25,319 bases of DNA from a virus (lineage: Duplodnaviria; Heunggongvirae; Uroviricota; Caudoviricetes), in the IMG/VR virus record IMGVR_UViG_2648501787_000014; one strand, 5' to 3'. The position numbers were made by a program, and so were the translations under genes. Position 1 is the first letter of the stretch; every line of letters starts with the position of its first letter. Below are positions 1,281-3,421 of the stretch, one piece after another. Under the pieces are notes generated by a model. That model saw only the letters and a list, made by a program, of their open reading frames with translations. It was not told the origin of the DNA and searched no databases.

Positions 1281-1789
1281 GAGAACTAAACCTCACCAAA
1301 GAACAGCATGAGTGGCTGAATGGCTGGCTTGAACTGTGGGGCGCATGGGTTTATTCAGGTCGTTTGGAAAAGCGCATGAGCAGCGTAATAGCGAAGTTCA
1401 TGGAGAGCGTAGAGCCGGGAAGAATTATGACAAGGCCAATGTGCAATGATGATGATGGAATGTTGATTTCTCAGGTCGTCGATTCCGTCATGTGCATTGA
1501 CAAGAAAGCCTTTGGCATCCTCCTCAGCTACTACGCTCATGGTTCATCTAAGCGAGCAATTGCATCCTACTATCACGCGACTGCAAAGCCACGCAAGATG
1601 TGTGGACGTGGTGGCGAGGGATGGAGAAAACCTTCACTGGCAACCTGTAGAAACGAAATTGACGACATCCTGAAAGCGTCATTATTTGTTTTGTACCAAC
1701 CAATGCAAAATGCTTTCAAAATGCGTAAACGTGTTGAGAAAGTTAAGCATGTTGCTGTTAAAAACCTTGACATGCAATTAGCCATTTAG
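1271..1789 (+). CDS. Late-gene antiterminator Q-like protein (non-lambda type)
   Basis: 172-aa Cys-rich ORF lying between ninI and the lysis cassette, overlapping ninI by 10 nt; assigned by position plus family resemblance, not by lambda Q identity. Confidence 0.6.
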
Positions 1790-1796
1790 CCATAAT
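1767..1796 (+). promoter_or_regulatory. Candidate late promoter (pR'-like): TTGACA, 18-bp spacer, CATAAT
   Basis: TTGACA at 1767-1772 and CATAAT at 1791-1796, overlapping the 3' end of the Q-like gene and directly upstream of a T8-run terminator. Confidence 0.35.
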
Positions 1797-1806
1797 TAGA
1801 GGGTAA

Positions 1807-1849
1807 GCTGCCGTTAGTGACTCTTAAGTTGCAACGGTGGCTTTTTTTT
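1807..1849 (+). terminator. Candidate intrinsic terminator (tR'-like) downstream of the Q-like gene
   Basis: Imperfect stem (ccgtt/aacgg core with GU-extended flanks) followed by a run of 8 T at 1842-1849. Confidence 0.45.
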
Positions 1850-1854
1850 GTTTG

Positions 1855-1873
1855 CACAACAGGTAAGAGCATT
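1855..1873 (+). repeat. 19-bp direct repeat cacaacaggtaagagcatt, copy 1
   Basis: Exact 19-mer repeated at 2106-2124; this copy directly follows the terminator T-run. Confidence 0.8.
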
Positions 1874-2105
1874 CTCCCTTATGGGGCTTGGCTTAAATGC
1901 ACCGAGTGCTCTTATCGTTGTGGCAGCACAACGATAGTTTTCGTCAGAGTTGGCGACTTTGCGGTTTTTTAGAAACTGACCACAAAGATAAATGCAAACG
2001 ATGATGTTGTTCTGATGGCGGCGTAATAGCCTGTAAGTCAGCAAGGTCTTCCGACTCCTTGTAAACAAATTCGGCGCACTGGCCCGGTGTGATTAATAAT
2101 GGGCA

Positions 2106-2124
2106 CACAACAGGTAAGAGCATT
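2106..2124 (+). repeat. 19-bp direct repeat cacaacaggtaagagcatt, copy 2
   Basis: Exact copy of 1855-1873; directly abuts stem I of the hammerhead motif. Confidence 0.8.
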
Positions 2125-2172
2125 GCGCGCCTGACGAGTCCATGAGGGACGAAACGCATTAGCGTCGCGCGG
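2125..2172 (+). ncRNA. Hammerhead ribozyme motif (type I topology: open stem I, hairpin stems II and III)
   Basis: Stem I 5' strand GCGCGC (2125-2130); core CUGACGA (2131-2137); stem II GUCC/GGAC with loop AUGAG (2138-2150); GAAA (2151-2154); stem III A-CGC/GCG-U with loop AUUA (2154-2165); cleavage triplet GUC (2164-2166); stem I 3' strand GCGCG (2167-2171). Confidence 0.6.
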
Positions 2173-2616
2173 AGTATCCCCAGCCGGGGAATAACTGTAT
2201 ACCAGGGGAGACAACCCTAAGCGCATTTACGAGTGTGTTTAGGGCGTGGGTCGGCAATGACTCCCTGTGCAGCCGACATCTGGCCCGGCAACATACAGTG
2301 CTCTTTCCGTTGTGCTGAATTAAGCGAATACCGGAAGCAGAACAGGATCACCAAATGCGTACAGGCGTCATCGCCGCCCAGCAACAGCACAACCCAAACT
2401 GAGCCGTAGCCACTGGCTATCCTGAACTCATCAGTGATAGTTACGCTGCGGCCTTCTATACATGACCTTCGTGAAAGCGGGTGGCAAGAGGCTGCGCTAA
2501 CAACCTCCTGCCGTTTTGCCCGTGCATATCGGTCACGAACAAATCTGATTACTAAACACAGTAGCCTGGATTTGTTCTATCAGTAATCGACCTTATTCCT
2601 AATTAAATAGAGCAAA

Positions 2617-2631
2617 TCCCCTTATTGGGGG
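2617..2631 (+). promoter_or_regulatory. sdi-type RNA stem-loop controlling dual-start translation of holin/antiholin
   Basis: tCCCCttattGGGGg hairpin immediately upstream of ATG-AAG-ATG (Met1 at 2638, Met3 at 2644), as in lambda S. Confidence 0.6.
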
Positions 2632-2637
2632 TAAGAC

Positions 2638-2961
2638 ATGAAGATGCCAGAAAAACATGACCTGTTAGCCGCCATTCTCGCGGCAAAGGAACAAGGCATC
2701 GGGGCAATCCTTGCGTTTGCAATGGCGTACCTTCGCGGCAGATATAATGGCGGTGCGTTTACAAAAACAGTAATCGACGCAACGATGTGCGCCATTATCG
2801 CCTGGTTCATTCGTGACCTTCTCGACTTCGCCGGACTAAGTAGCAATCTCGCTTATATAACGAGCGTGTTCATCGGCTACATCGGTACTGACTCGATTGG
2901 TTCGCTTATCAAACGCTTCGCTGCTAAAAAAGCCGGAGTAGAAGATGGTGGAAATCAATAA
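2638..2961 (+). CDS. S: Holin/antiholin S (class I holin, S107/S105 dual start)
   Basis: 107-aa [23 protein letters not shown]... closely matching lambda S as I remember it; three hydrophobic segments; Met1-Lys2-Met3 dual start. Confidence 0.95.
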
Positions 2962-3421
2962 TCAACGTAAGGCGTTCCTTGATATGCTGGCGTGGTCAGA
3001 GGGAACTGATAACGGACGGCAGAAAACCAGAAATCATGGTTATGACGTCATTGTAGGCGGAGAGCTATTCACTGATTACTCCGATCACCCTCGCAAACTT
3101 GTCACGCTAAATCCGAAACTCAAATCAACAGCCGCCGGACGTTACCAGCTTCTTTCCCGTTGGTGGGATGCCTATCGTAAGCAGCTTGGCTTGAAAGATT
3201 TCTCTCCGAAAAGCCAGGACGCTGTGGCACTGCAGCAGATTAAAGAGCGTGGCGCTTTACCGATGATTGATCGCGGTGATATCCGTCAGGCTATCGACCG
3301 TTGCAGCAATATCTGGGCTTCATTGCCGGGCGCTGGTTATGGTCAGTTCGAGCATAAGGCTGACAGCCTGATTGCAAAATTCAAAGAAGCGGGTGGAACG
3401 GTCAGAGAGATTGAGGTATGA
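2945..3421 (+). CDS. R: Endolysin R (lytic transglycosylase)
   Basis: 158-aa ORF closely matching lambda R; overlaps the S stop; standard lysis-cassette position. Confidence 0.95.

Follow-up and report, generated by a model that had tools for sequence, protein, structure and literature searches.

An array of clamp-bracketed RNA modules, including a transfer-messenger RNA-like body without a tRNA-like domain, in the late leader of a lambdoid prophage

The stretch of DNA analyzed here, IMG/VR virus record IMGVR_UViG_2648501787_000014 (Caudoviricetes; 25,319 nucleotides, hereafter the window), contains a segment at 1855-2637 that the original prediction, made from the sequence alone, described as the structured, non-coding late leader of a prophage. 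At the upstream end of the window Pfam identifies NinG, a Ser/Thr phosphatase and a Q-family antiterminator, and downstream of the segment lie the lambda-family holin S, the R lysozyme open reading frame (ORF) and Rz (S and Rz by Pfam; R has no Pfam match, and its homologs of the same length are annotated as glycoside hydrolase family 24). A pR'-like late promoter at 1767-1796 (TTGACA, an 18-nt spacer and CATAAT; 11 of 12 consensus positions, near-consensus for sigma-70) overlaps the 3' end of the Q gene, and a tR'-like intrinsic terminator at 1807-1849 consists of the arms GCTGCCGTT (1807-1815) and AACGGTGGC (1833-1841) followed by eight T (1842-1849). The promoter overlapping Q and the hairpin with its T-run place the segment, as judged from sequence, in the pR'/tR' late leader of a lambdoid prophage, the setting that had been assumed. 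The tR' block (1790-1848) is 100% identical in other prophages that have different cargo downstream of it. On the plus strand, to which all features described below in the window belong, the order is pR'/tR', A1-L-B1, a small hairpin, M, A2-[hammerhead + Y]-B2, X3 and the S leader, where A and B are the strands of a clamp helix, M resembles the body of transfer-messenger RNA (tmRNA), and L, hammerhead + Y and X3 are cargos. We consider it very likely that the segment is such an array of clamp-bracketed RNA modules (A1-L-B1, M, hammerhead + Y, X3), with a role in RNA processing and trans-translation that we infer below.

The exact 19-mer CACAACAGGTAAGAGCATT occurs at 1855-1873 and at 2106-2124, as had been reported, and these are its only copies: no other match with up to three mismatches was found on either strand of the 25-kb window, and the repeat arose in none of 100 dinucleotide-preserving shuffles. 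Copy 1 begins 5 nt past the T-run of the tR'-like hairpin, and copy 2 stops one base short of hammerhead stem I. The complements proposed for both copies are also present, at 1904-1914 for copy 1 and at 2296-2308 for copy 2, and they form a direct repeat of their own (1905-1922 and 2297-2314, 89% identical). Two hairpins named earlier were recovered, namely a perfect 10-bp hairpin at 1913-1936 (1913-1922 with 1927-1936) and TCCCC-agcc-GGGGA at 2176-2189, which appears in all folds computed. The leader (1851-2400) has a fold energy of -200.5 kcal/mol (z = -4.3 relative to shuffles); in the minimum free energy (MFE) fold A1/B1 closes L, A2/B2 closes hammerhead + Y, and the hammerhead stems are intact. 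Together, the fold, the modules and the covariation described below support the earlier view that this is a structured, non-coding, modular RNA rather than spacer DNA.

It is extremely improbable that the region instead encodes one or several small proteins and that its RNA features are incidental. ORFs of 35-84 aa exist on both strands, and some phage records carry a 'hypothetical protein' or a 'plp lipoprotein' over homologous stretches, but none of the ORFs in 1855-2637, the longest being 84 aa, matches a Pfam family, in agreement with the original statement that no credible ORF is present. Moreover, every ORF is cut by module boundaries, the variation tracks base pairing and not codons, and the homologous stretches are unannotated in most records. 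In RCS47, JL22, P1 OP279344 and 24-32N (L008, 1315-1548), either the A-L-B hairpin is annotated as a protein-coding sequence (CDS) named 'putative lipoprotein Plp' or M is annotated as a 'hypothetical protein' CDS. These calls are probably spurious, because the RNA covaries at these places.

By its pairing, the 19-mer forms one strand, A, of a clamp helix in two parts; the partner, strand B, is AGTGCTCTTnnCGTTGTG. Strand A reads CACAAC-AGG-TAAGAGCATT and strand B reads AGTGCTCTTnnC-GTTGTG; the base of the helix has 6 bp (CACAAC/GTTGTG) and its top 12 bp, with a bulged A between them, that is, 18 pairs and a 1-nt bulge, lengthened by pairs of the cargo. Repeat and complement searches, together with covariation, locate two strands of each type: A1 (1855-1873, the 3'-type clamp strand), B1 (AGTGCTCTTATCGTTGTG, 1905-1922), A2 (2106-2124), which may close M with B1 or hammerhead + Y with B2, and B2 (AGTGCTCTTTCCGTTGTG, 2297-2314). 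The 19-mer that was said to frame the ribozyme region is thus one strand of the helices that bracket it. In loci from many enterobacterial phage families, A and B bracket about 35 distinct cargos of 31-172 nt, with the same boundaries throughout and with the cargo either at the top of the helix (order A-X-B) or at its base (order B-X-A).

The arms A and B were located independently of each other; a looser search yielded 38 distinct arm pairs, 34 of which were kept once spurious B matches had been removed. Among these 34 arm pairs, 95.1% of the cells are paired, compared to 37-61% with the partner slid, and compensatory changes are found at seven pairs, for example AAGAGC/GCTCTT to AATTGC/GCAATT, AAGGGT/ACCCTT or AATGGC/GCCATT. 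The observed score was reached by none of 500 shuffles. G·U pairs are frequent (21/34 at one position, 10/34 at another), and since a G·U pair corresponds to a C·A mismatch on the opposite strand, this points to selection on the RNA of the plus strand.

Several other identities of the clamp were considered and rejected. An integron attC site is disfavored by the strands CACAAC/GTTGTG, which are unlike the core consensus RYYYAAC/GTTRRRY, and by the G·U pairs. A DNA element of the miniature inverted-repeat transposable element (MITE) type is disfavored by cargo that differs between copies and by the G·U pairs, which point to selection at the RNA level. As an alanine acceptor stem, the clamp top has a G·U at 2:71 in one register, and in many cassettes this G·U is replaced by A-U, so that an acceptor-stem G3·U70 is not conserved. 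No A-X-B cargo was called as a tRNA by tRNA models, and Rfam RF00005 matched solely annotated tRNAs in related loci. No Rfam family was found for L, Y, X3 or the clamp (E up to 1, window 1500-3000 and related loci); matches to MIR535, snoU85 and CbSR9 were dismissed as noise.

Between the two copies of the 19-mer lies M (1936-2105), a tmRNA-like element that the original prediction did not mention and that was recognized from sub-threshold Rfam matches, alignments, covariation, a table of tags and its distribution. The Rfam models tmRNA_permuted and beta_tmRNA align to its tag region (1972-2075) with E = 0.005-0.007, at scores below the curated cut-offs (26.3 vs 47 bits for RF04321 and 17.2 vs 84 bits for RF01850), and these matches cover the tag region alone. 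Alignments place a conserved 5' motif, AGTTTTCGT, at 1936-1944 and a resume codon GCA at 1994. The tag ORF (1994-2023; GCA AAC GAT GAT GTT GTT CTG ATG GCG GCG, then the stop TAA at 2024-2026) encodes ANDDVVLMAA, compared to ANDENYALAA in E. coli. The resume region, TAAATGCAAACGAT, 14 nt around the resume codon, is invariant among M copies, and the same 14 nt are found in genuine phage tmRNAs, both standard and permuted, called by ARAGORN in other viral contigs. All 30 distinct M tags have 10 codons, start with A-N-D, are mostly hydrophobic and end in A-A or V-A followed by TAA, evidence that is weakened by a viral scan pattern in which TAA was fixed at codon 11; M loci found by BLAST, collected without this pattern, agree with the tag reading frame. 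Codon 10 of the tag is GCC, GCG or GCT; its free third base falls within a predicted loop, so that RNA structure and not translation may account for the codon pattern.

The phage tmRNAs called by ARAGORN in IMG/VR contigs are permuted in L009, L040, L055, L058, L090 and L091 and standard in L077; their tags include ANDNVWALAA, ANDNKYALAA and ANDNAYAMAA, and they have the exact resume region of M. In the permuted ones the segment from CCA to GGGG holds a conserved UGACGA-hairpin-AGCAAAC motif. A hammerhead in this intervening segment was considered for L009 and L090 and rejected: UGACGA...AGCAAAC resembles the hammerhead core but misfits it.

The structure of M is supported by covariation in 32 diverse copies. 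Helix 5 (2012-2016 with 2037-2041) has the stop codon of the tag in its loop and is followed by two H-type pseudoknots, pseudoknot 2 (2042-2046 with 2057-2061 and 2051-2054 with 2071-2074; CAAGG/CCTTG with CCGA/TCGG) and pseudoknot 3 (2075-2080 with 2086-2091 and 2082-2085 with 2101-2104; CGCACT/GGTGTG with GCCC/GGGC). In helix 5 and the two pseudoknots 90.8% of the cells are paired, compared to 37-48% with the partner slid; compensatory change is found at 20 of the 24 pairs, and the score was reached by none of 500 shuffles. A T-arm, an acceptor stem and CCA are all missing from M, and ARAGORN makes no call in the window or in the complete genome of the M-bearing siphovirus Sa179lw; a tRNA or a full tmRNA in the window can therefore be rejected. 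M is thus a tmRNA body minus the tRNA-like domain. That the phage might provide an acceptor piece in trans was also rejected, as ARAGORN and Rfam found no tRNA-like domain in the complete Sa179lw genome.

M is widely distributed. Using BLAST, we found it (~190 nt) in 770 phage records from unrelated groups at 70-92% identity, among them siphoviruses of Klebsiella and E. coli, Ackermannviridae, Felix-O1-like (Ounavirinae) phages, Erwinia phages, phages of ~72-76 kb and P1/P7. It is further present in ~600 P1-like plasmids and in 137 of 5426 complete E. coli genomes (2.5%). Among the matches listed, M is nearly always unannotated, now and then covered by a short hypothetical CDS and never annotated as RNA. 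In the Felix-O1-like (Ounavirinae) phage mistaenkt M lies inside a tRNA cluster. HNH homing endonuclease genes are scattered in this cluster (L006, 250-678 and 2482-2934) and could be a route for cassette mobility in this phage group; no HNH homing endonuclease genes are found near the lambdoid or P1 arrays. In Sa179lw (L132, 9683-10256, minus strand) a non-coding unit of ~570 nt holds M and has its own consensus-like promoter (TTGACA-17-TAGATT) and a terminator at its end. The layout of this unit is M, A, cargo, B, an X3-like module ending in CCACAAC and a long hairpin; ARAGORN found no tRNA in the Sa179lw genome.

Phages often carry fragments of tRNA and tmRNA genes from integration sites, and M could accordingly be a decaying pseudogene, that is, a fragment of a phage or host tmRNA left by recombination, functionless and tolerated. 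The absence of a T-arm, an acceptor stem and CCA would fit such an origin. We regard it as improbable, however, given that M occurs at 70-92% identity in phage records from unrelated families, that helix 5 and both pseudoknots are preserved by compensatory change, that none of the 30 variants breaks the 10-codon frame, that M has a dedicated promoter and terminator in Sa179lw, and that it sits as a unit in the tRNA cluster of a Felix-O1-like phage.

Upstream of M, A1-L-B1 (1855-1922) folds as a 68-nt hairpin around L, a conserved cargo of 31 nt (CTCCCTTATGGGGCTTGGCTTAAATGCACCG, 1874-1904) recognized from its core, its covarying flanking stems and its fold. The loop core of L, TATGGGGCTTGGCTTAAATGCA, is ~90% conserved in Felix-O1-like (Ounavirinae), P1/P7 and lambdoid phages. 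The order is A-L-B-M-A in the window and M-A-L-B in mistaenkt and in one P1-like contig; by sequence, these are the same circular order opened at different points. L contains GGGG/CUCC, in which G1-C72, G2-C71, G3·U70 and G4-C69 could form as read from the sequence. Cassettes in L010, L013 and L102 have 87 nt between A and B, comprising a T-arm (GTAGAG-TTCGACT-CTCTAC), a 6-bp acceptor-like stem capped with CTTTTT and a 12-nt D-loop-like stretch that runs up to B, a topology equal to that of a closed tRNA-like domain of tmRNA. The tmRNA-like circular order, the topology of the L010 cargo and the GGGG/CUCC in L lead us to read L as a possible capped remnant of a tRNA-like domain, without the T-arm.

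These features raise the alternative that M is part of a working two-piece tmRNA, made chargeable by processing of the remnant (the L hairpin or a T-arm cargo) and by CCA addition, which tags stalled proteins with ANDDVVLMAA. The arrangement M-A-[cargo]-B does reproduce the circular order of tmRNA (body, 3' strand of P2, tRNA-like domain, 5' strand of P2), L010-type cargos place a T-arm, a capped acceptor-like stem and a D-loop-like stretch between A and B, the GGGG/CUCC of L can form the pairs named above, genuine permuted phage tmRNAs have the same resume region, and the composition of the tag is ssrA-like. But L has no T-arm, its putative acceptor stem comprises only 3-4 bp, the G3·U70 register has at least one alternative and is lost in P7 (AGGG), L encodes no CCA, candidates for a tRNA-like domain are rejected by ARAGORN and Rfam, and the T-arm cargos are not next to M in their loci. 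A working tmRNA is therefore unlikely, in our opinion, though less so than a pseudogene.

The perfect small hairpin that follows L (TATCGTTGTG-GCAG-CACAACGATA, then TTTTCG), found at 1913-1936 by an inverted-repeat search, overlaps B1. Together with TTTTCG it was flagged as terminator-like, and it forms in the MFE fold of the full leader. With a stem, GTTGTG/CACAAC, equal to the base of the clamp, it has the appearance of a clamp or acceptor-like stem that has collapsed and encloses nothing. Its T-rich tail coincides with the conserved 5' motif of M.

The cargo of the second bracket begins with a type I hammerhead (2125-2172), which matches Rfam Hammerhead_1 at 2126-2172 with 24.7 bits (E = 0.003), the curated cut-off being 34 bits. 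In the Rfam alignment stem I is formed by 2126-2130 and 2167-2171; the core is CTGACGA (2131-2137), GAAA (2151-2154) and T2165 and C2166, as read from sequence and alignment; and covariation indicates stem II (2138-2141 with 2147-2150) and stem III (2155-2157 with 2162-2164). Cleavage is predicted 3' of C2166. The catalytic core is kept in eight homologs, with N7 alone varying (C, U or A). Compensatory change is seen at two pairs of stem II and at one pair of stem III; stem I is invariant and hence uninformative.

In its homologs a hammerhead of this kind is invariably accompanied by Y, a pseudoknotted domain of 124 nt (2173-2296) whose homologs have 79-96% identity. Alignment and covariation give the hairpins TCCCC/GGGGA, CCCTAAGCGCA/TGTGTTTAGGG and GTCGGC/GCCGAC and the pseudoknot GGGGAG/CTCCCT. 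In hammerhead and Y together 98.8% of the cells are paired, compared to ~40% when slid, with 11 compensatory pairs, including three of the six pairs of the pseudoknot. The single-stranded and junction stretches of Y (GGAGTATCCC, GGGGAATAACTGGATACCAG, GGGCGTGGGTC and ACATCTGGCCCGGCAAC) around its covarying helices and pseudoknot are very highly conserved, and Y has no Rfam match. Such a pattern would be expected of a ligand-binding or catalytic RNA and not of a passive spacer. The hammerhead + Y cassette stands alone between capsid and tail genes in a T7-like Enterobacter phage and directly upstream of a real tRNA-Met in Pectobacterium phages (in phage Pappous the 5' end of this tRNA takes the position of B2); elsewhere it precedes B and an X3-type module.

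X3, the conserved cargo at 2315-2396, is closed by 2304-2317 with 2385-2398, according to an inverted-repeat search, and ends in ...AGCACAA-C-CCA, with CCA at 2394-2396. This CCA stops where homology to the tRNA-carrying prophage L001 resumes (2397 of the window corresponds to 1721 of L001, whose tRNA-Thr ends at 1719). The core of X3 is common to P7, where it lies inside an A-X-B bracket, and to rV5-like phages, and its orientation relative to the clamp varies, being A-X-B in P7 and B-X-A' in the window. X3 was considered as a degenerate tRNA and rejected, as its three homologs show no covariation, no cloverleaf was found and ARAGORN made no call. Just downstream of the X3-core cassette of P7 (L002, 3259-3374) we noticed an STnc100-like small RNA (sRNA) match with 43 bits (cut-off 47).

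The remainder of the segment (2397-2637) is the proximal S leader, which is common to other lambdoid prophages and 98% identical to the sequence downstream of the tRNAs in L001; the stretch 2467-2640 matches many lambdoid phages. A hairpin CCCC-TTATT-GGGG at 2617-2629 lies over the ribosome-binding region of S. The start of L (AGAGCATTCTCCCTTATGGGG, 1866-1886) and the part with this hairpin (AGAGCAAATCCCCTTATTGGG, 2609-2629) show 76% direct similarity, a resemblance that may be due to chance or to common origin.

Comparison of prophages indicates how the repeat arose. In L134, L136 and L140 the same tR' is directly followed by A-hammerhead-Y-B-X3. Prophage EH2252 has tR'-A-L-B-hairpin-M-A identical to 1839-2124 of the window and then a different cargo. 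The block L-B1-hairpin-M-A2 comprises 251 bp, which is the spacing of the two 19-mer copies that bound it; E. coli CFSAN018748 carries the block as well. On this comparison, the window is this 251-bp block joined at A to the commoner array tR'-A-hammerhead-Y-B-X3, and the 19-mer occurs twice because two bracketed units are present.

According to the original prediction, in contrast, the segment could be one RNA element duplicated in tandem, with one copy degenerate. Two A and two B strands in the same order, and perhaps the weak 76% resemblance of 1866-1886 and 2609-2629, would fit a duplication. Nevertheless it is very improbable: the two 19-mers bracket unrelated cargos (31 nt for L, 172 nt for hammerhead + Y), L and hammerhead + Y each have intact homologs elsewhere, the block between the repeats holds a distinct conserved RNA, M, and sister prophages hold either half independently.

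The same slot may carry other cargo. In the sister prophage L001 tRNA-Asn and tRNA-Thr exactly replace 1849-2396 of the window, and in P7 two copies of A flank an inserted block with tRNA-Asn and tRNA-Thr. The full 780-bp combination is rare, with at least 80% of it covered in 2 of the 5426 E. coli genomes. The swaps of arrays at A and the replacement by tRNAs in L001 suggest that the leader is a cargo slot and that the clamp strands are also places of recombination. The sequence comparisons show that the leader is a mosaic, a series of structured-RNA modules on the plus strand that have been exchanged horizontally. Each module is kept far beyond lambdoid phages, which answers positively the earlier call for a check of conservation in related phages.

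One can go further and explain the clamp strands mainly as DNA-level linkers or inverted repeats for homologous or illegitimate recombination of cargos, with RNA pairing as a by-product. We consider this possible, though less likely than the favored explanation. All mosaic breakpoints lie at clamp edges, the 19-mer bounds a 251-bp block that is missing from sister prophages, the tRNA-Asn and tRNA-Thr block of P7 lies between two A copies, and the clamp sequence itself, beyond its pairing, is 91% conserved across families. Mere linkers, however, would not account for the compensatory changes that preserve the complementarity of A and B, nor for the frequent G·U pairs, tolerated solely in RNA of the plus strand; in the loci examined no gene for a recombinase or homing endonuclease is a regular neighbor; and DNA and RNA roles can coexist.

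Returning to the clamp-bracketed RNA array, the function that we propose for it, namely processing of modules from the late transcript and modulation of trans-translation, is inferred only. Upon Q-mediated read-through of tR', the late transcript would fold into clamp-closed modules, the clamps of ~19 bp insulating each fold and providing double-stranded processing sites like the stalks recognized by RNase III. B1 could alternatively pair with A2 and close M. The hammerhead would cut after C2166 and part M from Y-X3 and the S-R-Rz mRNA, leaving a 2',3'-cyclic phosphate on the M side and a 5'-OH on the side of Y-X3 and the lysis mRNA. The released M would then act on the host trans-translation machinery, an interaction for which the conserved resume site, tag and pseudoknots argue. 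In the likelier version, M would be a non-chargeable mimic or decoy of the template domain of tmRNA, a role that an RNA devoid of the tRNA-like domain fits better than tagging; in the less likely version, processing would yield a two-piece tmRNA, with M as one piece and A-L-B as what is left of the tRNA-like domain.

In addition to the sub-threshold Rfam scores of M and of the hammerhead, the fixed TAA of the scan and the free third base of codon 10, several points weigh against this interpretation. In the region of pseudoknot 1, upstream of the resume codon, RNAalifold gives a 2-bp stem, and manual candidates vary among subfamilies; nor does the alignment give the 5' motif of M a consistent pairing partner across subfamilies. 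Lacking the T-arm, acceptor stem and CCA, M has no chargeable end, which leaves a direct role in tagging without a mechanism. The X3 core is found in both orientations, which favors a generic clamp over a strict tmRNA geometry. Transcription from pR' and cleavage by the hammerhead are themselves predictions, and the clamp may have a role as a recombination linker at the DNA level too, since module boundaries coincide with clamp edges.

More tentatively, and with some doubt on our part, these elements may represent an unrecognized class of T-arm-less, circularly permuted tmRNA derivatives, packaged in clamp cassettes, which reprogram or block host trans-translation once released. The class would extend over many families of enterobacterial phages, with P1 and the lambdoid prophages of pathogenic E. 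coli among its carriers, and would be packaged with capped remnants of the tRNA-like domain and a hammerhead-pseudoknot processing module. It might tie up SmpB, protein S1, RNase R or the ribosome; alternatively, once processed, it might function as a two-piece tmRNA whose degradation tag is phage-specific.

The components seem to be of known kinds (tmRNA, hammerhead ribozyme, tRNA-type cargo of a late leader); M, the clamp system and the hammerhead + Y domain appear to be new, and for these three no description was found in Rfam or in the accessible full-text literature. Papers on ViI-like and Salmonella phages name tmRNA solely when citing ARAGORN. M resembles tmRNA (SsrA; RF00023, the permuted two-piece RF04321 and RF01849-51) in the resume codon GCA after a conserved upstream motif, in the 10-codon tag with an A-N-D start, hydrophobic residues and an A-A end, in the stop codon in the loop of helix 5 and in the H-type pseudoknots after the tag. 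The clamp, as a long helix closing the body, is like P2, the helix between the pseudoknot ring and the tRNA-like domain. Circularly permuted gene orders, as in the M array, are known for tmRNA (PMC11915505). M differs from tmRNA by the missing T-arm, 7-bp acceptor stem with G3·U70 and CCA, by only two verified pseudoknots, and by its setting within an mRNA leader or tRNA array, between clamp strands that unrelated cargos also use.

Complete tmRNAs have been described in mycobacteriophages and Bacillus phage G, and a curated tmRNA database holds 79 phage sequences, truncated forms having been rejected (PMC4131195, PMC11915505). Mycobacteriophage DS6A has a tmRNA fragment with the tRNA-like domain only, which inhibits host tmRNA when expressed in E. 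coli (PMC4131195, PMC11915505), so a partial mimic can be functional. M is likewise a phage-borne, tmRNA-derived partial RNA, but DS6A has the tRNA-like half without the tag, whereas M has the half with the tag and pseudoknots without the tRNA-like half, is found in enterobacterial phages and is far more widespread.

The other modules can be compared with known systems in the same way. The hammerhead has the CUGANGA...GAAA...UC core and the three stems of type I (RF00163), with stem I open and stems II and III covarying, but it scores below the cut-off, is fused to Y, is mounted on a clamp and lies upstream of a tRNA or tRNA-like module. Hammerheads of bacteria and prophages have been reported in genome surveys. 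Shiga toxin (Stx) phages carry tRNAs between Q/tR' and the lysis genes, and the tRNA-Asn and tRNA-Thr of L001 occupy the same slot with identical flanks (1790-1848 and 2397-2640); by analogy, both kinds of cargo would be small stable RNAs expressed from the late operon and freed by RNA processing, but the window holds a tmRNA-like body, a ribozyme domain and tRNA-like remnants, not tRNA. RNase III processing stalks include the stems flanking 16S and 23S rRNA in rRNA operons and intergenic sites of phage T7. Like them, the clamp is a long-range helix (~19-22 bp) with a bulge or internal loop around a stable RNA, and the sequences flanking the cargo provide about two turns of double-stranded RNA conserved by covariation; unlike them, one near-identical stem serves many cargos and phage families, with the cargo at either end of the helix. 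Pas sRNAs and STnc100 are prophage sRNAs located by the holin gene of lambdoid prophages (bioRxiv 10.64898/2026.05.13.724894), and, similarly to the array, these are non-coding RNAs just upstream of the holin-lysozyme operon; the Rfam scan of 1500-3000 did not find STnc100 in the window.

If M is functional, it would be a widespread, unannotated phage RNA aimed at ribosome rescue, among the most conserved quality-control pathways of bacteria, and the mirror image of the sole known partial phage tmRNA, that of DS6A. Some lambdoid hybrid phages and Mu reportedly depend on host tmRNA; active manipulation of the tagging system by phages is now directly testable. Several 'hypothetical protein' and 'plp' calls in phage annotation are probably spurious. 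The location of hammerhead + Y upstream of tRNA-like genes suggests a natural ribozyme-based device for RNA processing. Finally, the clamp would give phages a simple rule, usable again and again, for the exchange of small structured RNAs, and searching between A and B may offer a practical route to new phage non-coding RNAs.

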